A DNA stretch of 64,000 nt, from the NCBI GenBank assembly GCA_965235115.1, contig OZ249436.1, forward strand, positions 20,772,001 through 20,836,000, given 5' to 3'. Numbering within the stretch: the stretch's first letter is position 1; every line of letters begins with the position of its first letter. Below, in pieces: positions 11,670 through 45,600 of this stretch. A program made the translations under genes and the position numbers. This stretch comes from Laetmonice hystrix. Taxonomy: Eukaryota. The notes under the pieces are model-generated. The model saw only the letters and a list, made by a program, of their open reading frames with translations. It did not search any database and was not told the origin of the DNA.

Positions 11670-11945
11670 TTATCCCCTGAAGGGTGCTTGATGTGTTTTA
11701 AGGTGTCCCTTTAAATGATCTGATCGAGTAAATGTTTTGCAGCAGACAGGACAAAAGTGTTGTGGTTGCTTGTGCAGTCTCCGGTGGCGGTACATGTTTG
11801 AAATGTTGGAATAACTGTTGCCACAATCGGGACAAACGAAAGCTTTGGTAGGTCCTTGTCCGTCCGGATGACCTCTGCTCCTGTGGTCAGACGAATCTAT
11901 TGTGAAGCCCACTCCTGCCGACTGATTGCACATTTCCCTTTGGCT
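11670..11945 (-). CDS. Gene A alternative terminal exon 2: two C2H2 zinc fingers
   Basis: Acceptor tctttgtttgacag|AGC, phase 0, compatible with the constant-exon donor at 16202. Encodes SQREMC...FVCPDCGNSYSNISNMYRHRRLH...CPVCCKTFTRSDHLKGHLKTH...stop. Confidence 0.8.
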   Translation of the reverse strand, partial: SQREMCNQSAGVGFTIDSSDHRSRGHPDGQGPTKAFVCPDCGNSYSNISNMYRHRRLHKQPQHFCPVCCKTFTRSDHLKGHLKTHQAPFRG

Positions 11946-13772: not shown

Positions 13773-14039
13773 TCATTTGTCACTACGGATATAGTCTGTT
13801 TGCAGCCTTGAGGATATCAAGCCTGATGAACTAGTACTGGAGTCGTGCAGTCTATGTCTCCTCATGTGTGTCCGAAGTACATCAGACCTTTTGAAGCCCT
13901 TTTTACACACTGGACAGACGTAGCCGTTCTGGTAGTAGTGTGTCTGACGATGCCGCAGCATGTTTTGTTTCTTCGAGTATGACTTGCCACATATTGGACA
14001 GGTTGCCCGGTCTTCTTGCCCATCATGCTCATCTCCAAT
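13773..14039 (-). CDS. Gene A alternative terminal exon 1: two C2H2 zinc fingers
   Basis: Acceptor attttgctgtgtag|ATT, phase 0. Encodes IGDEHDGQEDRATCPICGKSYSKKQNMLRHRQTH...YVCPVCKKGFKRSDVLRTHMRRH...stop; minus-strand AATAAA at 13697-13702. Confidence 0.82.
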   Translation of the reverse strand: MGDEHDGQEDRATCPICGKSYSKKQNMLRHRQTHYYQNGYVCPVCKKGFKRSDVLRTHMRRHRLHDSSTSSSGLISSRLQTDYIRSDK

Positions 14040-14432: not shown

Positions 14433-14754
14433 TCCCTCATTTCAGAGACTCCAAAATGCAGACATGGACTGTCAGGTTACATAAAGCCTTAGAACTGGAG
14501 AAATCTAATGAAATTTAACATTCAGTTGCCTGTTGTCGCCACGAAGCGAATGTCTCATGGCTGGTTGTTGACCTAGCATGGACTTTGGACAGCCAATAAA
14601 ATTCATCGGGCGATGAACTGATGAATTCCATTGGCGTTTCAACTAGAACGTTAAATTTCATCAGATTCCTCCATTTCTGTGGGTGAACATTGATTTATTG
14701 ATTTATGTAGTCTAAGGCTTTACATACATTTTGGAGTCACTGAAATGAGAGACA
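14433..14754. mobile_element. MITE, shared family with 31015-31378
   Basis: Inverted termini catttcagagactccaaaatg / catttttggagtcactgaaatg; related copy at 31015-31378. Confidence 0.65.
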
Positions 14755-16201: not shown

Positions 16202-17179
16202 CTTGTTTGTCACATAAACATCTGGACACCATGTAGAACTGGATGCATCAATTTCCTGAATACTTTGGCCAGTGTGCTTCGACTGTTGATTAGATACATG
16301 ATGCAGTTCCACTTCATCTCCCAGATGTTCTGACCACACAAATCCTGCCATGCCATGAGAGTCATGTCCAATGAAATACTCATTCTTTACTTCATTCGAC
16401 ATGGCTAATTCTGACTGAAACTGTTGTACTGATGCACTGTATATTTCTTCAGACTTTCTTCTGACAAAATCTGGTTCCCTATCCAATCGTCGTTTTGCTG
16501 GAGGTTCGTTACATCCACCAGAACTGGTGTAAATGTCATCATCATTCTCTTCACGGTCACCAGTGTCAACCTCAGAACTTCTTCCATTACTTGTGTTTAA
16601 ATTCAAATGATGAGGTGAAACCCATCCTGAAGCTGTTGACTCATCTCCTGAGCATTCTGATTTCTGTCTTGGTGAATGTCTCCTGTGTCCGATGATTCGT
16701 GCCGGATTTGCTATTTTTGAGGCAGCTGTGAATCCATTCTCTGGTCCATTTTCCTCAAAATCTGTTACTTCAGCTACTTCTTGTTTGATGATATTCGAAG
16801 CTAAATTTCCATTTTTGCTAGTCCTTGTCAGTTCATGGTTCTTTGTGTTACTTCCGTACGTTCTTCTTAAACCTTGATCTGTACCATTGCCTTTCCCAAG
16901 CTGCCGTTTATGTCTACTTGGGACACTCTGATTTAAGGAAATATATTGATCAGAATGTTCTGCAGGGTTACTTTGAACTGCTGCCTTTGTCACTTCTATA
17001 TCATTCTTGAAATTTTTGCTGATATGTACAAAAAATACTTCGCTGTGGTCTATGCTGACGCCTAGGAGACCTTCCACAGACAAATCTTTGTCAAACTGCA
17101 GGCTGTTTTTACACAGTAATGTTACAGTGTCAATGAGGAGACTCTTTACACGCTGTTGCTCAGGTTTTAACTCAGCCAT
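16202..17179 (-). CDS. Gene A constant exon: unrecognised ~55-aa N-terminal domain plus disordered linker; putative zinc-finger transcription factor with alternative C-termini
   Basis: 326 open codons. Acceptor tatttttcag at 17282 with an in-frame stop before the ATG. N-terminus EQQRVKSLLIDTVTLLCKNSLQFDKDLSVEGLLGVSIDHSEVFFVHIS is paralogous to the ORF at 25294. NLS-like PPAKRR and SUMO-like IKQE. Phase-0 donor AAG|GTATAA at 16202/16201. Confidence 0.85.
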
Positions 17180-19418
17180 CCTGAGGTTCCAATTGAACTG
17201 TCCTAACTTTGAACACAGACAGAGTGGTGTTGCTGTTGAGAACTTGGCAGAACACGCAGTGTAGTCGACTGCTGCAGTTTCCTGAAAAATAGATTATACA
17301 ATGTAGGTCTAAAGAATTCTACAAGAAAAACCACAGCATTTACTTTGCAAAGATACTCTGTTCAAAAGTAACATGCATATGTCATGGCTAAATCTTCAAA
17401 TTGATATCATTGCCACTGGCTAATCCTTTAAACTTAAAGTTAAAGTACAGAATAGGCACATGTATGTGTGATGTGGTTAAACTTTTTGGCAAGTACCTTA
17501 ACTGAGACCACCAGAAATTCCTGCAGACAACCAAGGTTCCATTATATGGGTTGTCCGGCGGACAACCCGAGAAAAAAATCCTTAAATTGAATGCTGATAA
17601 GCCTAGGTTTATGGGAAATAATGCCTTTGCAAAGCCTTGGCCTCCTGAGAAATAGTGTTAGGTGCACTGAAATTATATAAGTAGATGATATATTTACAGT
17701 TAACATGCGTTTTCTACAGACAGCCCACACAAAAGGAAGTATGGACCATGGTGACATTGAATTTGACATCAGTGTCATAGTATTTGGATGGCACAGCCAT
17801 CTGCGGACAGAAAACTTTTGAATTAAATAGGCTGCAATACAGTGCATTTGGAAGCATACATCAACTCTCAACATAGCCTACTCAAGAATCAAGCGTTTTT
17901 AAAATAAGTAGGCCTATCAGCAGTTTTTAAGTTAAGTGAAATTTTATTACCTTTTTAAAATCAGAAACACTTGTTTTTTTTCATTAAAAACAAACATAAT
18001 ATTAATATGTAATGCGGTAATGGGTTTGACTTAGTTGACTTAGCACATGACCTTAAAATTTTAAGCCTGCCAAGGGAGTAGGCCTAAGGCCTTGTGCCAC
18101 CCTTGTGCCACCGCCCTCTGCGAGTCTGTGAGTGTGACTACTACGAACCCACTACTACAAGTGAGTGCGACTGTGGAGTGTGGTGGTATAAATAAAATCC
18201 CAAAATCGGTACATTCAAAAACGCTGACGGTGCCCATGCATGGGAAGAATGACGCATTCCTTCCAACAGACCGAGACAAAAGCAAGGCTGGTAGTTCAGA
18301 GTGACCCCCCCCCCCCCCCCCCATCCCCGACCTGACTGATTTTGCATTGCCAATCATGCCCGGCTGCACCATCTATAATCGAGGAACCCCCCCCCCCCCC
18401 CCCCCCCCAAATATTTATGAACAGCCTATCATTATCAATCATGCATTACTCCATAGCCATAGGCATAGCCTAGCCCTAACGTTAGGCCTAATAAAAGTAG
18501 TATGGAAGAGAACGCCGATGCCCCCATGGAATAACTACTTTGTGTTCTAAACAGATCTACTGCTTTACGAAAGCGTTATCTGCTATCAACGGTCTGTTCT
18601 TCATGCTATTTTGAGGAGCACTTACATAAAACTAGGCCACTGCATCACAGCTGAATGGCGTTTTCAAGCTTTTTTCGGAACCTAATTTCTATGGCCTCGC
18701 TTTGGAACCACACAGGACTCTGGGAGCGGTTCGTATTCTGTTATCCTCACCATCCACTACCACCGTGTAGACAGTTATGTGCTGAAATTGTTCATCACAA
18801 TGGCATGAGAAGTGTTACATATCAATCGTTAGATAGTTTAAGATCTATCGTGCTGGAAACATATTAAGGCATAAAACATATCGGTCATCATAAATTTTAG
18901 TTAGATAATGACAGGCTCCCTCGAGCTAGCCGTTTCCTTATCGAGTGTGCAGCTTTGTCGTGAATGTGGGAATATCTCCCAAAATTTATATATACCACGG
19001 AAGAAATTACTCAAATAAGACATTTAAATGAAAGGTAAGATCATTTTTTGCCAAATGCACCAGTAGTAATACTAATTCGATTCCTGAATAGTCCAAAATA
19101 CGTGACTGACTATGATTTGGGAACCATCGAAATTTGAAGGAAATTTTAGGGATTCTTTTTAGTATTTCCGCGAGGTGGCGCAACTGTATAAACACGGCAG
19201 GTCACAGAGTTAGAGGAGGCTAGGCCAGTCTAACACCTTGCATGATGCAGTGTTAGAGTTGATAAAATTTAATGCTAGACAGCCGCGAAATCTCTGAAAG
19301 TTCCCTGGACTTCTGCAGAGCTATTTTAAGCGTGGCGTGTACTCGCTACACATCTACTATGATCTAGGCTATGCGCCGTACTGACTGTACAGTGTACACA
19401 TTCCGCTCAGTCACCTTC

Positions 19419-25023: not shown

Positions 25024-25293
25024 TTTGCAACTGTTTCACTTTTTTTGATACATCCTGTATAGTTTAGCTACAGTTGCTTCATTGTAAACTGACAGAAGGG
25101 ACAGTTTGATAATTTAGTCATTCACTTTTGACCATAATTCACTGCCATAGATGTGGGTGCTTCTTAATTCTGTTATTATCTTTTTTTCTCTTCATAGAAG
25201 TTGACCTCATCTCCTCATCGAAATTCCATGAATGATTGGTGAAGGCAGAACGACCAAGAACGACGGCACTGGTGTATCACATGTGTTAGGAAG

Positions 25294-26331
25294 ATGAAAG
25301 CCGACCAAGAGAGGGTTAAGCACCTACTGACGGACACTGTCACCTTACTGTGTAAAAATGGTATTCAATATTCAAAGGAACTCCGGATTGAAGCACTGGT
25401 GGGCATTACTGTAGACCAGCATGACGTTTTCTTCGTTCACATCAGTGAAGGATTCCTGAGTTCCTCTGCTGCTCAAGCAAGTACCAAAGCTGCAGAAGGG
25501 CCCAAGGATAAAGTAACCACAACAGCTGCAGCGTCTTTAACTGACAAAATACAGATAAAAGCTGAAGCTGCTGTAGAAGAACAACAAGAGACTGCTTCAC
25601 CACCTACACAGACTACTGCAGCACCTACGGCAGCAAAGGTTATCTTGCCTCGAAAGTCAAATGATACACACAGTCCAAGCGGCAGCACCAACAGTCCAGT
25701 CCACCAAGCCAGCCCTCTTCCACAAAAACAAGTTTCAAAGGATGAAGAGTCAGAACAATGTATAGAGATCATACAGCCCCAAAGTGTTGATACATTGAGC
25801 GATGACGATGTGTTGGTTATAAGTCCACAGGTGCCCACAAAGTTAAAAAACCCGAGCCAAGTTGCTCATGCTGCAGTTAAAGTAGCTGGTCAAAAGAGGG
25901 TGCTTCGTCACTCCCAGAACCAACATCAAAAGGTGACTGTAATATCACCTGACAGTGATATCAACTTAGATGATACACAAGCTATGCAGCAAGGCTATTC
26001 GAAAGTAGTTGGAGAGCTTTTAGTGCATACACAGTATTCTGATTATAAATATGAAAAGCCTGAAGAAATTGGTGAGCCTCAAGTGAAGAGACAAATGCTT
26101 GATTGTGACCAGAGTAACAATGGCTACATGTCTGGTTATGGTCAGAAAGTAAAGCACGTAGACACTGGGAGTGACCATAACCTGGGCACTTCCTGGCCAC
26201 ACCTGTCCAGCATGACGGGAGAGTTTTCAGGACAGATGTCGGGGGAGAGTCCTCAAACCGGGTCACTCCCGGGATGTTCGTCATGGCAGTCGCTCTCAGG
26301 TGGCAGTCAAGTGGCAGCAGGATCAGAACTA
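25294..26331 (+). CDS. Gene B constant exon: same unrecognised N-terminal domain plus disordered linker
   Basis: 346 codons after an acceptor (ttttctcttcatag, 25197). MKADQERVKHLLTDTVTLLCKNGIQYSKELRIEALVGITVDQHDVFFVHISEGF aligns ungapped to gene A (31/54 identical by my count). IKAE, DDDVLVI and EPQVKRQ motifs. Phase-0 donor CTA|GTAGGT at 26331/26332. Confidence 0.85.
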
Positions 26332-27428
26332 GTAGGTGTCACTTTAAATTAGGGATCTTTGTTGACTATGTATACAAGTTTGCAAAAATTAGACCCAAGT
26401 GGTTTTTAGCCTTGGCCCAGCAGCTGGGCCAGGCTTTGGTCATACTCCTTGCCTTTCAGAACTACTGTCTCCCTTGTTTTTTTCTATTTGCTTTCACATA
26501 GTGCCATAATTTTATCCTATTTAGGAATGCCATGATGTAGAATGTGCTTTTCTTCAAATACTAATCCCTTTGAGTAAAAACACATTCAATTTATTAAGTA
26601 AAATTAACGAATGTCAATTTTTCACCTGCCCCCAGATGAGTGTACTTTTGGACTTTGCTGTCAGGAAGAACGCTGCTCTCAAAATTGCTGTCATTGGTCA
26701 TTTTTTATTCAGAGAGACCTAACAAACATTTCAAGACTATTTTCAGCTTTGCACTCGTTCACTTGAATAAATGTCATTTTCGACCCCCCTTTGGGGGGTT
26801 GCTGTCAGTGGCGTAGCCACATTAAAAATTGCTGTCACCAATCAAATAAAGATTGGGCACTGTTTCCAGCCTTACCATCGTTCACTTGAATAAATGTCAT
26901 TTATTGCACCTTTGTTCAGGTATTTTGGGGGTCAACGCCACCTTGCTGGCCCGGCAGCAATACCTTAAATGTCAAGGAATGACTCTAGAATGAATCCATG
27001 AAGTCAAACCTTTTGCCCTTATTTACATGATTAAACATTCTAGGCTCCCGGTCTAACTCCCCCGTCCCCGCGACGCTGCCTGCTGAAAAACCCCTACATT
27101 GTAAACGATCTTGTCTTACTTATTAGTGACTTTTAATGTTGTCTATTCACTACCTAGTAAATGCCGCGCCATTTTTTAGTCCTTTGGGACTAGCTTGCAG
27201 TATCTACTGGGCATTTTGTTGGCCAGATAGTAGCTTGTTTGGTGTACATGCGTGCCTTAAAAAATCTGGAACCGGGACGCCGGAGACAACCAAAATTTCC
27301 ACTCCTATTAAGGCGATAGCATAGGTACTCGCCGGGCTACCGACCCTATGTCTGCCTGGCCAGTGGACTACCATGCAAGATTTTTCTAGACCTGTGTGTG
27401 ATTGTATTAGGCACGGAGCTTTTTTCAG

Positions 27429-27635
27429 TGTCCAAGCCAAGGCAATGGAAGGCATCTCAACGACACTCAGTCGCCCGATATGTCCAACAATGTGCAATTG
27501 TTGGAGATGTCAGATGAAGACCTTCTTGAATCTACAAATCAATGGATTATATCTGTGTGTGAATTTGGATTACAGAATCAATGCAAGGCAAAGAAAAGTA
27601 TATTACCTGGGTGCTCCTGTCACTCTCATGCTTGA
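27429..27635 (+). CDS. Possible additional phase-0 terminal exon of gene B (68 aa, no recognised domain)
   Basis: Acceptor ctttttttcag|TGT opens CPSQGNGRHLNDTQSPDMSNNVQLLEMSDEDLLESTNQW...CHSHA* in phase 0; could be chance. Confidence 0.3.
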   Translation, partial: CPSQGNGRHLNDTQSPDMSNNVQLLEMSDEDLLESTNQWIISVCEFGLQNQCKAKKSILPGCSCHSHA

Positions 27636-27801
27636 ACACAAGTTCTACTGTGAAACAAAGTTTCTGCTTGGTTTTAAAACTGGAGTGAGAATATAACACC
27701 CCACCCCCACCAACAGCCTGCTATTTTTGGAAGAACCTTCTTTTTTAGTGGGTATTGGTAAGAGCAGGGGATAATTATTGTTGGAGTAACTAAATGTTTC
27801 C

Positions 27802-28220
27802 CAGGGTGTGCAGCAACTTGAAAAGTGCTTGAATTTTCAGGCCTGGCTTGAAAAGTACTTGAATTTTGACAGGGTTTTGAAAAATGAATAAAAACCTTGA
27901 AAAGTGCTTGAATACCTGTGTTTTATCCTTGAATTTGGTGGGAGGGAGGCAGTAACGAAATCGGGGCATGATGTACATGTAGTCTTAAATTCTTAGGGAT
28001 TTTGACTGCTCGCAACTGCCGTCGGCTATTCTCCGTCATTTTATTTTTGCACAAAAAGTATTGCATGAACAAGAAACATATCTGCAGTGACTAAAGTCAG
28101 ATACAGTCCTATTAATTGACCATACTAGCTCAGATTTTGCCACGTGCATGTCCTTGAAATTAGAGAAAATGGCCTTGAAAAGTCCTTGAATTTTTTTGGT
28201 GAAATTTGCTGCGCACCCTG
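27802..28220. mobile_element. CAGGG-terminated non-autonomous DNA element
   Basis: cagggtgtgcagcaa ... ttgctgcgcaccctg inverted termini with repeated cttgaaaagt.cttgaa subterminal motifs. Confidence 0.6.
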
Positions 28221-28413
28221 TTTCCAGAAGTAGATTAAAGAAAATAATAATAAAAAAGCTTCAAGTGTCATTTTTTAAAAAACCACTGGTTATACAAACA
28301 GGATAATTTACTTTTTTGGGCCAAGGTTAATGCAATAATGGTGTGCTACTCTGAAATTAGAAAGTTATTCCACTTGTAATGTTCACAGATGTGCTTTGTC
28401 TAAATATTTTCAG

Positions 28414-29449
28414 GTTGATCATAACCGCGTGGGAATGTACCCATTGAGAGAATCAATATTAGAGCGTCGATTTGCCGCACGCACCAGACAGAATATTCCA
28501 GGCAATACCCTTAGGCGCAATGAATGGGCAATGCGTACATTTAATTCATGGGCAGTTGCTCGTAATGAAAGAATGGCCGATGCCAGTAGCATTGACACTG
28601 TTGCAGTGAAAGATGAGTACACTAAAGTAAAGAATCTTGACGTTATGACTATGAGTGATGAAGAGTTAAACTACTGGCTAGGTAAATTTGTTGTTGAAGT
28701 CCGGAAGGTTGATGGAACAGAATATCCACCGAGAACCATAATGTCTATTCTAACGGGCATACAGTCCTACATTCGCCTGGCGCGCAACCGTCAACTTGAC
28801 ATAATGACAAATGAAGCATTCAAAGGTTTTCATCAAATCATGAATTCTGAATTAAGTCGTCTTTCAGCAAGTGGAGTGGGTCAAAAAAGGAAAGAGCCTG
28901 TAGTGTTTTCTCTAAGTGATGAAGAAAACCTTTGGAAAACTAAGGAACTTGGAGACCACAATCCGGTGATGTTGTTGAAAACTCTGATATTGCTTAATCG
29001 GAAGCATTTCGGCCTTTATGGCCGTCGAGAGCATCGCAACCTCCTCTTCAACCCTCCACAAATAACACTTCATGAACCACCAGGCAAGCTGGCATATCTA
29101 AAATTCACTGGCGATACATCCAAGAAACCAGGAAAAATTGAAAGAAAGGAAGTGATCTACCAATTGGCCAATCTGGCCTACCCAGAGAGGTGTCATGTGC
29201 AGCTGTATAAAACGTACATGTCCTTGTGCCCCCAGGATGGGCGAGATGGAGCATTTTACCTCACACCCCTGCAAAATTCAAAGGACAATACTAGGGGAGT
29301 CTGGTACAGCCGCCAGCCTGTAGGTGCAGCTCAGTTAGCCAAATACATGGCAGAGATATACAATAGAAACTCTGAGGCAACACAGTTTGAGGGGGAAGGC
29401 GAGCAAGAACATCAGATTATAGAAGGGACAGGGCCCAGATCAGTGCAAG
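28414..29449 (+). CDS. Gene B alternative exon: Crypton-derived tyrosine-recombinase-like (DUF3504; ZMYM/KCTD1/QRICH1-like) domain
   Basis: Acceptor atattttcag|GTT, phase 0. Motifs NT.R...WAMRTFNSW, ELNYWLGKFVVEVRKVDGTEYPPRTI, HFGLYGRREHRNL, ERCHVQLYKTYMSLCP, FYLTP and WYSRQPVG are typical of DUF3504 proteins. Probable donor G|GTAGAG at 29449. Confidence 0.82.
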
Positions 29450-30009
29450 GTAGAGTATTAAAGTTTTTATTGTCCTATTATGTAAGTCTTTACATCTGGG
29501 CTTCCTCTAGGCAAGAATAGTCCTTAGCCACCGTGACTAAACGGGTAATCAAATGTTTTAGCCACATCAAAATTTTTTTATCCATTTTATTTTTTCTCAC
29601 TCGAACTAAATAAAATATAAAACCTGGAGTTGTGTACACGTTTCAGAAAAAATGGCATGAATTTCCTCCATCTCCGGATTTTAAAGTTCGCCAGTGTGGC
29701 GAAAACATGGTGTGTTTTGTTATATTACGTTTTGCCACTTTGCTATTGTTTTTGCCAAATGCGAACGTGATGAACGGCTAGCGGAAGCCCAACCCATGTA
29801 TTTAAGCCTCATGCACTGCCTAGGTACCTTGTAACCATCTAAGTTACAACTCACCGGCATATACATTAAAATTATAGTGGCCAAATTTGTATAGGCCCAT
29901 GCCTCAACGTAAGAGGAGGTGTTCTGACTGTGTCTTTCATATGACATTTAGAGAATAAAGCTGTGGTTGGTTTATACACAATATATAGGGTCATCTTGTT
30001 TCTTTTCAG

Positions 30010-30056
30010 TCCCAGGTGGAAACCTGAAACATGAGGGCGAAGGCCTCGAGTGTTGA
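30010..30056 (+). CDS. Probable short last coding exon of the DUF3504 isoform
   Basis: Strong acceptor tcttgtttcttttcag; a phase-1 join gives VPGGNLKHEGEGLEC*; AATAAA at 30249-30254. Confidence 0.5.
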
Positions 30057-30554
30057 GGTTTTTCACCAGGCACACAGGTAAGTTGAGCAGCGCTATTGTA
30101 AGAATTGTGAATGGCCGTGAGCCTCCTCCCAATAGCGAAGCTAAACATACCTGTTGGCTGGTAGAGGCTGATTATCTTTAGCTATCTGCACCTCGCACCC
30201 ATGACTGGCTGTTGCCTCTTGTAGGGCAGTGCAGTGTCTTATTTTCAGAATAAAAGTTCTTAGACTTGCCCTCAGGAAATTGAATTATTTTTGTCCATTC
30301 TGATTTGTCAGGGTCTCACATTTGCTGAGAATAGTTTGAATTATATGGCAGGGTTCATGGGTAGTGTTGCCAGAACATTGGTGACCTTAAACTCTAAAAC
30401 ATACTATTGGTCTGGCAAGCGACATAAATCCATGTGAGTTACATCATAATTTACATAACTGAAAAATGACTTGTGTAGATTCAGGTAGGTATCTGGTTAT
30501 ACAATAACTATTTATTATGTAGACATACTAAATGGTATTTTGTATATTTTACAG

Positions 30555-30743
30555 TGGGAGAACGTGCTGGAACGACAACGGACTGTAGTTCAGTGGAAGC
30601 CATATGTGTGCACCATTCCGGGATGTGGCAAGGGCTTCCACCATTTACCTAGTCTGTGCAAGCATCGGCGTGTCGCCCATGGCTTCTCCAAAGGCAGACA
30701 TCAAGACCAAATGGCTCACTTCAACCAATGGCAGTCTGACTAA
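30555..30743 (+). CDS. Gene B alternative terminal exon: single C2H2 zinc finger
   Basis: Acceptor atattttacag|TGG, phase 0; KPYVCTIPGCGKGFHHLPSLCKHRRVAH then stop; AATAAA at 31736-31741. Confidence 0.78.
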   Translation, partial: WENVLERQRTVVQWKPYVCTIPGCGKGFHHLPSLCKHRRVAHGFSKGRHQDQMAHFNQWQSD

Positions 30744-31014
30744 TAATACCTCTCATAGACTCGGATTATAAAAGGAATGCAGTTGTTAACTCAACAAACA
30801 GCTGACAAAGAGACATGTTGTACATGATCTTTCAGGAAAAATACTCGGAACATTTAGCATAAAGTTGACATAACTTGTTCTATATGAATTCTCTAAGTTA
30901 TCAGAATTTCGCTTATTTCAATACTGATCCACATGTCTGTCTCAGTCTAAGGCATTCTGCACTACACATGGACACCGAGCACGTATTTTGAAGGACATTA
31001 AAGCCATTCACGAT

Positions 31015-31378
31015 TGTCTCCCATTTCAATGACGCCAAAATGCAGACATGGGCTGTCAGGTTAGATAAGGCCGTAGACTACATGTAGAAATGGGGAAAGC
31101 TAATGAAATTCAACATTTCAGTTGCCTGATAAAATCATTGACCTGGCATTGACTTGAACAGCCAACGAAATTCATTGGTTCACTGGCTGATGAAGTTCAT
31201 TAGCTGTTAGACCTGTAAACAACCAGCCATGGGACGATCGCTTTATAGCGACAACAGGCAATTGGAATGTTGAATTTCATTAGATTGCTCCATTTCTGGG
31301 TACCCATTTATTGCTTTATGTAGACGAAGGCCTATCCTAACAACCCATGTCTACATTTTGGAGTCATTGAACTAAGAC
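31015..31378. mobile_element. MITE, shared family with 14433-14754
   Basis: ttcaatgacgccaaaatg / cattttggagtcattgaa termini and a shared internal sequence. Confidence 0.65.
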
Positions 31379-32358: not shown

Positions 32359-33093
32359 GGAAATTCCTTCAGCAGCCCAGTACGTGGTTACAAGAACCCT
32401 CGTAATAACACCATGTGTCAGCCTGTACGGGACGTCCTCGAGAGTAGCCTTGCCCTACCTGTACTCATGGAGGCCAAGAAGGTGACAGCCTTTCGACTTT
32501 TCTGGCGAGGACATGACACTATTCAGGGGTGGGAAAACATTATCTACAACCGCCTGGAACTCGACGCCCTAATCGCTGACCATCCGGGGGTTTCGTTCTT
32601 TATATCGGCCGTCACAGCCACAGCACGAGACATTAAGACGACAGCAGGTAATGTCGACGCCCGGCTACGAGCCTATCCAGCTCTCGGATACTGGGTGGCC
32701 TCCAGAGAGGCAGATTTTGATCAACATTTTCTCATGAAGCGCTTGACAAATGCAGCAACTGGAGCAGAGCTGAAGACGATGCTTCAGAGCGATGGTGAGA
32801 AAATGACCGAGGTGGCAGCACTCAATCTCATTGTGAAGGATTATGGTAAGGGATATGTTCAGCAGAGAGTCAGTGAGAGTGCTTCCATTTGTTGTAATCC
32901 CGAAGAAGAACATCCAACAATTCGCTTCATCCTCAAAGAAGACTACTTTGAGGAGAGACTTCGAGAAGCAGTTGATCTCCTTAATGGTGTGGGATGTCCT
33001 GTGTCCCTTGAGAAAGTAGATCTGGACGGAGCAGAGAATGATCAGGATATCCAAGAGGAAGAAGAAGAAGTCGAGGACACTGCGACCACCTAA
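32359..33093 (+). CDS. Uncharacterised 244-codon coding exon with acidic tail; either another gene B terminal exon or a separate gene
   Basis: Acceptor attcctttttgcag|GGA in phase 0; long ORF with globular-looking composition, more GC-rich than its flanks; internal ATG (MCQPVR) also available; no domain recognised. Confidence 0.65.
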   Translation, partial: GNSFSSPVRGYKNPRNNTMCQPVRDVLESSLALPVLMEAKKVTAFRLFWRGHDTIQGWENIIYNRLELDALIADHPGVSFFISAVTATARDIKTTAGNVDARLRAYPALGYWVASREADFDQHFLMKRLTNAATGAELKTMLQSDGEKMTEVAALNLIVKDYGKGYVQQRVSESASICCNPEEEHPTIRFILKEDYFEERLREAVDLLNGVGCPVSLEKVDLDGAENDQDIQEEEEEVEDTATT

Positions 33094-39689: not shown

Positions 39690-42600
39690 ATGGCGGCGCT
39701 TAGTTTACAACTCGTTGTGGCTGTGCTCGCCTTTTCAACTGTCTATTATGTTGCCAGTGCCTACCCAATTCTTGGTCACACCCAAGGACAGCCATGGCCA
39801 ATGCCGCGAATTTACAAGCCAACGACCGTTCAACAGTCACTCAATAAGGAGAAGTTCAGGTTCGCTGTGAGAGGCTACGACTGTGACATTCTAGAGCAGG
39901 CCATTCGCCGCTACTACGGCCTCGTATTCTACCCGGGAGCCGGTGGCGGGGAGGCCGGCAGCCGGCAGGCCGGCGGCCGGACGGCCCTCCGCTTCGAGCC
40001 ACACGGTTCGCAGTGGGGCCGACAGCGGCGGGCAGTGAGGGAAATGAAGCAGCAACACAACGCTGTTACCGACCTCCCCGTTTTACAAAGTCTTGATGTA
40101 CTGCTCACGCAACCCTGCGACAAGTATCCGTCTCTGAAGATGGACGAAAGCTGTAAGTAGAATCAAATTTTAGATAGACTCTATGTAATAAATTAATTTA
40201 AGGAGTACCAACAGTTTTATTTTTTCGAATCTAGCCAGGCTAGCTATGCGTAGTTTGACAATTGCTTCAACTTCATACAGTTCAATTGCAGTTTTTCCTT
40301 TTGAAAAGATTTGTTTCTGTGCATCTAATTCCATTTGTTTTGGGGAATCTAAACACGCATCAACTAACCTTTTTCTCAGTATCCTATGACTACTGACACC
40401 GTTCATAATTTCTCTCAGTCTCAGTCAACCAGATTGAAGCTGTATTTGAAAAATATTTCACAGACCTATTCTTTTGATACCGGTCCACCACAAGCAAGGA
40501 TTTTTCTTCGCCTCCAGCGAAGAACAATGTATACTGTACTGTACATACTGTACTGACACTCCTAATAGGCCTACCCTGCTGTTTTTTCATTTAGATGATC
40601 TCAGTGTGCAGACAGGAGCAGCCAAGTTGATGACAAACAGCATCTGGGGTGCTTTACGAGGACTTGAAACTTTCAGTCAGATTGCTTTTGAAGCAGACAA
40701 CAGTATGGTAAGAGCTGTTAGCAGTAGATGTACCATGACAAAAATTATTGTCTAGTAATCATCAAAATATCATTCCAGTTAGAAAGAAAAAAATAGGAAT
40801 TAACAAAATGTCTGAGAATTGAAAGGTAAATCATTTATGTCAAAGCTGCAAGTTGACTTTTTGTGTTTCTAGATCTTGATTAATAATACAGAGATATCCG
40901 ATTCACCTCGCTTTCCCCACCGTGGTGCTATGCTGGACACATCAAGACATTTCGTCCCTAAATCAGTCCTCCTTCAGAACCTGGTAAGAATCCCTCCTTT
41001 TTGAAGGCAATATTTATGTTCAAATGCATGATGGTAATGATGAGTTTTAATCATGATCAAATTTAATTATTTGGGTAAACTTAGAAAAAGGTTGTTAATA
41101 TTTATGTTCAAATGCATGATGGTAATGATGAGTTTTAATCATGATCAAATTTAATTATTTGAGTAAACTTAAAAAAAGGTTAGTCCTTTTAAGTAAATTT
41201 TGTTGTACAAGATGTGATAAAGCAAAATATGTACATGGACATGTACTGTAATAAGCTTTTTAGACAGTTTTTTCCCCAGGCTTTCATGAAATATTTCATG
41301 GTTCACAATCCAGTGTAAAATTTTTCCAAAGCAGTAAGGTAGAGTGGTATTGTGTCAGGGTTCATATCTAAATCTGCTTTTACCAGTAATAATTTTAAGG
41401 GTGACACTACTGAAATTTTTTGAGCTACAATGTTTCAATACCTTTCAGGATGCTATGACCTACAACAAACTGAATGTGTTTCACTGGCATATTGTTGATG
41501 ATGAATCCTTCCCATACCAAAGTCGCACCTTCCCAGAACTCAGTAACAAGGTGAGAATTTATCGAAGGATTTTATACTATTATTTACTGCAGGCTATGGA
41601 GGAACATCATTACGGTAATTTAGAATGAGTTTTATTCTCACAACAAATCATAAAACGTTTATACTCAAATAATAATTCATTTGATTTCAGGGTGCATGGG
41701 AACCATACACTCACATCTACACACAAGAAGACATAGTGGAAGTGTTGGAATATGCACGTATGAGAGGAATTCGAGTCATTCCAGAGTTTGATACCCCAGG
41801 TAAAAAACAACTGCAGATAACCAGTATTGTGTATTCTACAAATTGAAGTCCTTTAAATGAATGTCACTTTACAGATTTGAACATTTTATAATGAAGAAGG
41901 AGACTACTAACATACACTTGATATTTTGGCATTGTAGGGCATGTTTACTTTAGAGACAGACCCTGAACAAACAAGCAGATATGTACTTTGCAAACTTACT
42001 GGTACAAGAGAAATAATAGGTGAAAAAAAGTTTTATTCCACCTGTAAAATTCGGATCAAAGAGCAAAAGCATTGTATTGTATTGACTGTAAGGCATTCTG
42101 AATGATTTAGGCCACTTCATCAACTGTTGGCAATATGATATTAACTTGTCATTGCCAGGTAATGTTAGGCGTCAGTCAGGTACACGTTTACTGTTAATGC
42201 TGACCTGTGGGTAGTGTAGCAAACAGTACGGAACAGTATGTAATGGCTTGGGTAGACTTTTTGTCTCATACTAACTAGCATTCTGATTTTTTTTTGTGAA
42301 GTCAGTAGATTAATAATTGGTAAAAGGGTAGTAGAATCTGAATGATGATATCATTGTAAAGGGAGTCGAAGGCTGGTAGGCCTGCTTGTAGTTGGAAGTA
42401 GTAATGTTGGCAAGTGTAGGGCCAAAAAGTGTAGAACATATTGCCAAAGACAAGAATGTTGAAAACGTTGTTATTTGTGGAATGAAAATAGGTCACAGTC
42501 AGTCGTGGGGAAAAGGCCAGCCTGACCTTTTGACGGAGTGTTGTACAAAGGGTGTGTTTAACGGAAACTATGGCCCTATAGACCCAAGCAAGGAGTCCAC

Positions 42601-45600
42601 GTACACCTTCCTACAGGGACTTTTTACAGAGCTGCGTTCAGTCTTCAAGGATCATTACCTCCACCTGGGTGGTGATGAGGTTAGCTTCAGCTGTTGGTAA
42701 GATGGAGTCGTCTGGGATTCATACACTTTCATGCTGTCACTCCTGTCCTCGCCTTTTACTCAACTCCAGTTGTCAGTCAAAACAGCTTTTAATACTAGTG
42801 AAAGCCCAATCGTGCTTGCCTGAGACATTTTTTTGTTAGAATGAAGTGGCATAGCCTAATCTAATGGCAGTTGAAATCATTGCTGTGTATATATAGCAAA
42901 TGCATGGATAAAAAATGGCATATAAAACTCGTCCCTACATATGAAATTAGCTGTCAAGTTTTTACCAGAGTTGTCGAAAGGTAGTCCACGTTTTATGAGG
43001 TAGAAAAATGTATGTTGTACTTTGTTTTCAGGCAGAGTAATCCAAACATCACAGATTTTATGAAGGCCCAGAATTTTACAACATATGGCGCCCTGGAGAG
43101 TTATTATGAAAATAGGTAAAACTTTCAGGAGTTTTCCATAGTAGTAGGCCTACTTGCTCCCTCCCCCTGAAAAACGGTATTTTTACTTGCCTCTGTTAGA
43201 GGTAATTAAATTTTCCATTTGAAAACCATGGTAAAGTTTTCCAAAAGTTATGAATGGCATACCATCATGTTTCCCCGTTGTTCTTCTAGAGTGCTAGACA
43301 TCCTGAACAAACTAGGTAGTGGGTACATGGTTTGGCAAGAGGTCGTGGACAATGGCTGCAAGGTCAGTAATAATAGTGAAATATTATGATGTATTTGATT
43401 CCTTTTTAATATGATTTTTTGAAATCTATTCCAAGATATTGCAAAATCATGTTGTGGTGTTATGGCCCTGTCTTAGAGGCCTTGATAATCTATGTGAAGG
43501 TCGCGGTCCGAGACAGACAGCATCACCCACACCATTCCCCCCGTGTAAAGGTAGCAGTCTGAGACAGACAGCAGCACCCACACCGTTCCCCCAATGTGAA
43601 GGTAGCAGTCTGAGATAGACAGCATCACCCACACCGTTCCCCCTGTGTGAAGGTAGCAGTCCGAGACAGACAGCAGCACCCACACCGTTCCCCCTGTGTG
43701 AAGGTCGCAGTCCGAGACAGACAGCAGCACCCACACCGTTCCCCCAATGTGAAGGTAGCAGTCTGAGATAGACAGCATCACCCACACCGTTCCCCCTGTG
43801 TGAAGGTAGCAGTCTGAGACAGACGGCAGCACCCACACCGTTCCCCCTCTGTGAAGGTAGCAGTCTGAGATAGACGGCAGCACCCACACCGTTCCCCCTG
43901 TGTGAAGGTAGGAGTCCGAGACAGATGGCAGCACCCACACCGTTCCCCCTATGTGAAGGTAGGAGTCCGAGACAGACAGCATCACCCACACCGTTCCCTC
44001 TGTGTGAAGGTAGCAGTCTGAGACAGACAGCATCACCCACACCGTTCCCCCCATGTGAAGGTAGCAGTCTGAGACAGACAGCATCACCCACACCGTTCCC
44101 CCCATGTGAAGGTAGCAGTACGAGACAGACAGCATCACCCACACCGTTCCCCCTGTGTGAAGGTAGCAGTCTGAGACAGACAGCATCACCCACACCGTTC
44201 CCCCTGTATGAAGGTAGGAGTCCGAGACAGACAGCATCACCCACACTGTTCCCCCTGTGTGAAGGTAGCAGTACGAGACAGACAGCATCACCCACACCGT
44301 TCCCCCTATGTGAAGGTCGCAGTCCGAGACAGACAGCATCACCCACACCGTTCCCCCTATGTGAAGGTAGGAGTCCGAGACAGACAGCATCACCCACACT
44401 GTTCCCCCTACGTGAAGGTAGGAGTCCGAGACAGACAGCATCACCCACACCGTTCCCCCTGTGTGGAGGTAGGAGTCCGAGACAGACAGCATCACCCACA
44501 CCGTTCCCCCTATGTGAAGGTAGGAGTCCGAGACAGACAGCATCACCCACACCGTTCCCCCTATGTGAAGGTAGCAGTCTGAGATAGACGGCAGGACCCA
44601 CACCGTTCCCCCTATGTGAAGGTAGCAGTCTGAGATAGACGGCAGGACCCACACCATTCCCCCTGTGTGAAAGTAGCGGTCTGAGACAGATAGCAGCACC
44701 CACACCGTTCCCCCTGTGTGAAGGTAGCAGTCTGAGACAGACAGCATCACCCACACCGTTCCCCCTGTGTGGAGGTTGCAGTCCGAGACAGACAGCATCA
44801 CCCACACCGTTCCCCCTGTGTGAAGGTTGCAGTCCGAGACAGACAGCATCACCCACACCGTTCCCCCTGTGTGAAGGTAGCAGTCCAAGACAGACAGCAT
44901 CACCCACACCGTTCCCCCTACGTGAAGGTAGGAGTCCGAGACAGACAGCATCACCCACACCGTTCCCCCTCTGTGAAGGTAGCAGTCTGAGATAGACGGC
45001 AGGACCCACACCGTTCCCCCTCTGTGAAGGTAGCAGTCCCAGACAGACAGCAGCACTCACACTGTTGCCCCTAAGCAGCTATTGCACGGAAAGTCGGGAG
45101 AATTTTTTCAAGATGTTTTTATTTCACAGGTACGTCCAGATACTGTTGTTCACATATGGAAGAGCGGCGCCGACGAGATGGCTAAAGTTACCAAGATGGG
45201 TTTACAGGTGATCATGTCGACGCCCTGGTACCTCAACTACATCTCCTATGGCGTTGACTGGAAGAAATATTACCAATATGAACCACTCGACTTCAATGGT
45301 AGATGTATATGCACAGCGTTAAAAAACCCACATCACCAGAACTTGCAAACTTTGTAATTTACGAATTGTAGGTAATCCAAACCTAACAATGAGAATCTGA
45401 CAACATTGTTGGTTTTGCAGGCACTGCAGCCCAGAAGGCGTTAGTGATGGGAGGAGAACTGTGTATGTGGGGAGAGTACGTGGACGGTACCAACCTCATC
45501 GCCAGGATATGGTCCGTATTTAGAGTGATAATTATTGTTATCTTGTGTTACCCTAATCACCTCAGTAGTTTTAGCTTCCATTGTTCTCTCCCAAACTAAG

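Follow-up and report, generated by a model that had tools for sequence, protein, structure and literature searches.

Capture of Crypton recombinases as alternative exons of host genes has been described before. According to the main text of Kojima and Jurka (2011, PMC3212892), a Crypton-derived DUF3504 domain forms an alternative exon, used or predicted, in the vertebrate genes KIAA1958 (isoforms a and b), KCTD1 (isoform b) and ATF7IP (an intronic YR), and a role in DNA binding or protein contact was proposed for this domain; the words "Annelid" and "Capitella" are absent from that main text. Here we describe an exon of this kind in the annelid Laetmonice hystrix. It lies in a stretch of 64,000 nucleotides (assembly GCA_965235115.1, contig OZ249436.1, positions 20,772,001 to 20,836,000 of the forward strand), which is referred to as the window and to which all coordinates given without a locus name apply. 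In common with the three cases above, as that main text presents them, the window exon is an intron-free DUF3504 exon that has lost the catalytic tetrad. It differs from them in that relatives of the donor still reside in the genome (61% identity) and the splice sites of the element can be traced, and also in being one of three kinds of tail, alternative to a zinc finger.

The nearest solved relative of the exon is human QRICH1 (PDB 9HJT; residues 31-315 aligned, E 4.5e-21). As stated in the available part of the report on the zinc-finger co-regulator Zincore (10.64898/2026.10.26.761783, PMC13538652), the QRICH1 DUF binds SEPHS1 in this complex. QRICH1 and the window exon are alike in their two-domain fold and in placing a dead recombinase in a transcriptional regulator; they differ in that QRICH1 has no swappable tails and probably has a separate origin.

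The organization of the host gene calls to mind lola and mod(mdg4) of Drosophila. Both are TTK-type BTB genes with about 20-30 isoforms, and the accessible text of PMC11426971 reports that no TTK-type BTB was found in annelids. The likeness, which here concerns genomic anatomy, consists in a constant N-terminal exon with many frame-matched tails, each carrying a single C2H2 finger, a pair of them or some different module. In the genome studied here, arrays reach 17 consecutive tails of the same kind, compared with the 20-30 or so isoforms given for lola and mod(mdg4) in that text. In contrast to these genes, the constant domain of the host is a 55-aa helix-hairpin unit without BTB match, its tails comprise a dead recombinase and a domain termed here domain X in place of FLYWCH, and all tails seen are on the host strand.

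Taken alone, the Crypton exon is another case of an already known type of alternative-exon capture. New is its combination with a non-BTB family and with a second, possibly nuclease-derived tail. We estimate the probability that the exon is a working, non-catalytic alternative tail of a modular transcription-factor gene at roughly two in three.

Organization of the host gene

The constant exon (25198..26331, + strand) contains 346 codons counted from the ATG at 25294, lies within an ORF at 25243-26352 (except for its upstream end) and terminates in a phase-0 donor, CTA/GTAGGT. Its ortholog P0155 is 59% identical over 361 columns. The beginning of the reading frame (25294..25479, +) encodes a conserved N-terminal domain of ~55 aa, predicted to fold into one long helix and one beta hairpin (model pLDDT 88.7). 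No Pfam family was found for this domain, and no BTB match was obtained in the constant exon or in 42 aligned members. By analogy, it is presumed to be an oligomerisation or cofactor module.

Two alternative terminal exons, both in phase 0, are located further downstream on the same strand. One of them (30555..30743, +) encodes 62 aa with one C2H2 finger, matched by Pfam zf-C2H2 with E 3.5e-4 and 21.3 bits, which is under the cut-off of 25.2. The other (32359..33093, +) encodes 244 aa with domain X, as defined by 55 genomic matches, their alignment, a structural model (pLDDT 88.5) and fold searches. A divergently placed paralog, recognised by sequence and domain match, has a constant exon (16202..17281, - strand) that encodes this N-terminal domain too and likewise has a phase-0 donor; its phase-0 terminal exon with two C2H2 fingers is found at 11673..11945 (-), and a second one begins near 14039, as judged by eye.

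The Crypton-derived exon (28414..29449, +) is situated between the constant exon and the finger exon, and a junction from 26331 to 28414 is predicted from the sequence. The preliminary description regarded it as an alternative C-terminus. It ends instead at a phase-1 donor, CAAG/GTAGAG (29449/29450), past which its frame stays open in the intron until a stop at 29518-29520, so that an unspliced transcript would add 23 more residues. A candidate mini-exon (30010..30077, +), predicted by the strongest acceptor score of the region and delimited by a GTAAGT donor, would provide a tail of 15 residues with the stop at 30054-30056, 21 nt before this donor, and a protein of about 706 aa in total. Joining of the Crypton exon to the finger exon would yield 32 out-of-frame residues. 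The proposed interchangeability with a zinc finger therefore holds as exclusion by frame, because splicing from the phase-1 donor would shift the reading frame of the finger exon, which is in phase 0, and every predicted route excludes the finger.

High-copy dispersed repeats (depth in thousands) at 27771-28190 and 30970-31340 flank the Crypton exon and the 3' end of the finger exon. The repeat at 30970-31340 is inverted in structure, and a related one is found near 14470-14720. Farther away in the window (39690-45400, +) lies a gene with a signal peptide, whose motifs we take to be those of a beta-hexosaminidase (GH20); a tandem repeat of 1.6 kb in one of its introns (about 43450-45080) lacks stops in several frames.

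Structure of the Crypton-derived exon

The exon is stop-free over its whole length (345 codons and one base), as originally noticed. Its assignment to DUF3504 was confirmed by a Pfam search, in which PF12012 matched residues 164-316 with E 9e-34 and 117 bits (curated cut-off 29.7), covering model positions 1-161 of 162. This domain is preceded by a QRICH1 domain at residues 36-148 (Pfam, E 2e-18). No Pfam match to PF00589 was obtained in the exon; the complete Crypton protein P0273 has one.

The start of the exon at a phase-0 acceptor, also part of the preliminary description, was verified: the acceptor reads ttttcag/GTT and its phase fits the phase-0 donor of the constant exon at 26331/26332. 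However, the acceptor alone is no evidence of capture, since Crypton copies have a candidate phase-0 acceptor there too. It was returned by script for L002 and L008 and recognised by eye in L003, L005, L007, L009 and L011, while it is shifted in the frameshifted L006 and L010 and lost in L004. The distance from the acceptor to the P.NT motif is 84 nt in the window exon and 75-84 nt in the genomic Crypton copies. At the other end, similarity to recombinases was initially thought to stop at MAEIY. In fact it resumes after a 39-nt in-frame deletion and continues to the element's own splice donor: EHQIIEGTGPRSVQG aligns with EQLIMERTGH.SVEG, right up to the donor used by the elements. The exon thus corresponds to the main exon of the element itself, flanked by its native splice sites. 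Because the element brought both of them along, finding these sites counts for less as evidence than it might seem. The CpG observed/expected ratio is non-discriminating (exon 0.59, constant exon 0.38, elements 0.56-0.86).

An in-frame ATG is found 21 nt into the exon (Met8, 28435) and stand-alone DUF3504 genes exist, which would be in keeping with a nested separate gene that has its own intronic promoter and is unjoined to the constant exon. This is very unlikely, given that the exon starts at a phase-matched acceptor and that a blastn search with 26332-28470 gave no match to the 5' part of the element or a promoter.

Loss of catalytic residues and of the Tyr exon

The tyrosine reported earlier in place of the box-I arginine was corroborated by alignment with complete elements: FGLYGRREHRNL aligns with F(G/A)LR..EH and Tyr202 (29017..29019, +) occupies the position of the catalytic Arg. 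Two more catalytic lesions are present inside the exon. The 39-nt in-frame deletion (site 29365..29366, +), evident against all nine aligned genomic copies, took away the NHS box, which includes the catalytic His, and Pro341 (29434..29436, +) replaces the conserved His of the TGH box, according to alignment with the elements. The second catalytic arginine is retained as Arg318. Beyond the exon, the expected place of the element's short intron and Tyr exon is occupied by a ~200-bp dispersed repeat (29495..29700, unstranded; 40 dispersed matches, 75-95%) that begins 45 nt past the donor, and the VRSYK exon is absent in all frames up to 30600, as determined by three-frame translation. With Arg changed to Tyr, the His box deleted and the Tyr exon absent, the R-H-R-Y tetrad is broken, and the recombinase is dead, as had been supposed.

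Probable origin from resident CryptonA elements

The genome (627 Mb, 35 contigs) was searched with the exon protein. This gave 24 matches, the best 13 of which, after the self match, are pieces of 10 loci with 44-61% identity, many with stops. The Crypton loci represent decaying CryptonA elements that show the R, H, R and Y motifs: the Arg of box I, NHSWR and TGH, followed behind a short intron by a VRSYKR exon. Nine genomic copies, one of them (L003) without its 3' part, were aligned to the exon. They form five families that are 93-98% alike within a family and have 55-62% nucleotide identity to the window exon, synonymous sites between exon and families being near or at saturation. All five families (L002-L011) have HSWR instead of the usual HSLR box.

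Near-identical dispersed copies, which the preliminary description named as a mark of a recent transposon, were not found, and the exon is single copy by depth and by DNA matches. Its depth of 53-61x (34x in the third run) compares with 58-63x (42x) for the constant exon; depth and variants were taken from read contigs of genomic type (three runs, one sample). Exon DNA was touched by none of 40 non-self matches (40 of 145 candidates scored), and the closest protein relative within the genome has 61% amino acid identity. In sequence, domain order and intron positions the exon resembles CryptonA as outlined in the available parts of PMC3212892 and PMC13465315. It differs from CryptonA in being single copy and in lacking the catalytic tetrad, the Tyr exon and detectable element ends around it.

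Independent domestication, suggested on the basis of the sequence alone, is partly upheld by phylogeny. In a quick 48-row tree the exon is nested among local elements with support of 97 and 98, far from seven WOC/ZMYM-like rows, six of which have MYM fingers. On the other hand, with 18 rows the AU test did not reject a tree in which the exon joins three WOC/ZMYM-like rows (p-AU 0.56), and the lnL of this tree was 1.9 above that of the free quick tree, although this test is weak because the ZMYM stem is long (1.9-2.5). The latter result and the common loss of Arg, His and Tyr would suit descent, through a displaced copy, from the ancient WOC/ZMYM/QRICH1 domain. We nevertheless consider such an origin highly improbable: identity to the seven WOC/ZMYM-like proteins amounts to 30-35%, compared with 61% to the local element; the exon is uninterrupted by introns, keeps the boundaries of the element and a remnant of its TGH box, and has no MYM fingers (Pfam); and a DUF3504 locus split by introns lies elsewhere in the genome, at C6:30.31 Mb. 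Identity values, inherited exon boundaries and the separate C6 locus lead us to prefer independent capture over the outcome of the tree test. The exon would thus be derived from the CryptonA families of this genome rather than from WOC/ZMYM.

No ortholog of the exon was found among 14 proteins at E<=1e-20 (best 45%), among the 150 representatives listed (best 48%) or among longer proteins, although the constant exon does have one in the collection searched (P0155). The Crypton exon may be lineage-restricted, or it may be uncalled in the species of P0155. P0007, a long-branch DUF3504 protein from a metagenome contig, is 41% identical to the exon and ends before the His box; it is possibly an ortholog or sister of the exon or a parallel domestication. 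Two or three tandem dead DUF3504 units occur in the animal proteins P0002, P0010, P0012 and P0081, one of which has C-terminal C2H2-like fingers.

A second Crypton piece in sense orientation (L026:2955-3590, +; G000:C1:31844445-31845095) is located 2.3 kb behind another host-family gene. It belongs to another lineage (40-52% amino acid identity to L015), contains one stop and one in-frame deletion, and has a phase-1 acceptor. It may represent a failed or lapsed capture.

Probable selection on the open frame

Conserved sites, 99 in number, were defined from seven complete or near-complete outside elements. The exon has changed 22 of them and kept 77, and 17 of its changes are not common to the nearest family; in the nine genomic copies, 8-15 of the same sites are changed. 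Six length differences separate the exon from the families, every one a multiple of 3, including the 39-nt deletion and another of 18 nt in conserved motifs. A stop or frameshift is present in the same stretch in eight of nine genomic copies, the exception being L007, which is open over the whole main exon.

In the quick tree, the terminal branch of the exon measures 0.67 changes per site and those of sister families 0.11 and 0.25. The tips of the seven copies that have sisters add up to a length of 0.28, and these copies contain 21 breaks; without L011, whose count is possibly inflated, there are 13 over 0.22. With a neutral share of 0.1 out of the 0.67, the probability of no break would be 6e-4 to 2e-2, depending on the rate; it would be below 2e-7 for 0.42 and 0.02-0.15 for 0.05, the share of the branch that postdates insertion being inseparable from evolution in the vanished active family. 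Among the exon variants listed, three of three are silent (P about 0.02, one sample). Taken at the level of sequence, these data support retention of the open exon frame under purifying selection after catalytic loss.

Some of the observations would also agree with an unused intronic Crypton fossil, a solitary remnant, with a frame open by chance, of a family that has died out. The splice sites belong to the element itself, no exon ortholog was found, L007 is open over the same stretch, and the broken insert of L026 is comparable in its position behind a family gene, so such inserts can sit unused. Still, a fossil is unlikely. The exon has suffered three lesions, 17 private changes and two deletions, yet it has no stop or frameshift, whereas copies only 2-7% apart are mostly broken. 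Moreover, the Tyr exon is gone while the Crypton exon and both its ends persist, and the silent variants argue in the same direction.

Alternatively, the exon might be spliced in through its good native sites and kept merely as harmless or as a dose-tuning dominant-negative, with no target of its own. The fastest branch of the clade and the deletion of two conserved loops would be expected in that case, and the N-terminal domain would be common to the finger and domain-X isoforms. We hold this for quite unlikely in view of the 77 conserved sites kept, and loss of the acceptor would presumably be simpler than holding 345 codons open.

Possible course of the capture

In the preferred reading, that of a working alternative tail, a CryptonA would have integrated in sense orientation directly downstream of the constant exon, in an annelid transcription-factor gene of modular build. 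The phase-0 acceptor of its main exon would have fitted the phase-0 donor of the host, so that the insert could serve as an alternative exon in the right frame, with no need for new splice sites; its use in this way we infer. Subsequently, the captured exon would have lost catalysis with the box-I Arg, the His box, the His of TGH and the Tyr exon. The open frame and the preservation of most conserved QRICH1/DUF3504 residues suggest selection on a protein of ~700 aa, whose variable end would be the Crypton part instead of the zinc finger or domain X. Judging from its relatives, the Crypton tail is most likely a non-cutting DNA-clamp or a protein-docking module. The shared N-terminal domain might bring it to chromatin partners, with oligomerisation conceivable by analogy to BTB.

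To our knowledge, known Crypton domestications are at least 500 million years old and their donor elements are gone. Here, donor families, splice sites and a second, possibly failed insert in one genome make the steps of capture readable. Their probable order is readable as well: an exon with its own phase-0 acceptor arrives downstream of a phase-0 donor, its catalytic function is lost and its fold persists. The locus may also serve as a small test case for the role of dead DUF3504 domains, relevant to ZMYM, KIAA1958 and KCTD1.

The host family and domain X

The N-terminal domain has 37 matches in the genome and is found in 129 proteins elsewhere, including those of the annelid Ridgeia piscesae, its only named relative in our searches. 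Judged by these matches, the host gene is one of at least 37 annelid genes in which a non-BTB N-terminal domain is followed by phase-0 alternative tails. All eight paralogs for which donor candidates were listed have one in phase 0, and nine C2H2 exons behind them are in phase 0. Besides C2H2 fingers, the tails of the family include 55 copies of domain X (~220 aa), all 55 matches being on the same strand and within 51 kb downstream of 10 host-family genes. For example, at G000:C1:19917000-19946900 (L029-L031, minus strand), one family gene is followed by two C2H2 tails, one unrelated tail of 174 aa and 16 domain-X matches, 15 of which are listed with phase-0 acceptors. A larger array (n=17) occupies C1:46.59-46.64 Mb. 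The 174-aa tail (L029:4171-4692, -, phase 0) is of a fourth kind; it has no Pfam match and is possibly another captured domain. In another species, one constant exon is found in two forms, once continuing into its intron (P0250) and once linked to a C2H2 tail (P0251).

Fold searches with the model of domain X revealed a ferredoxin-like core and weak likeness to HUH/Rep nucleases. A His pair is not conserved, and the combination of His-x-His and catalytic Tyr that marks HUH/Rep endonucleases is missing, no His being invariant among 18 aligned members. Invariant residues include P107, Y111, K160 and D161, which we assume to match the Pro before HUH and the lysine of YxxK(D/E).

The host family looks like an independent annelid invention of the lola/mod(mdg4) design, with two unnamed domains. 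A more far-reaching view, tentative and rather doubtful, is that the family is a standing platform for the capture of dead mobile-element enzymes. It would have captured Crypton twice (two lineages, one decayed) and, before that, an HUH/Rep nuclease fold, which would then have multiplied into 55 or more tails; its phase-0 donor would take any frame-matched exon, and the dead enzymes would still recognise the ends or origins of their parent elements. If so, annelids would have in this family their own equivalent of KRAB zinc fingers or mod(mdg4), with one effector domain and many sensors of mobile DNA.

No publication on the host family was found in a search of the openly accessible literature. 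In protein models of relatives, gene predictors mostly extend the constant exon into the intron, and the family is therefore probably mis-annotated in many worm genomes. In three of the relatives, P0152-P0154, the N-terminal domain is present twice in tandem, which hints that it works as a dimer.
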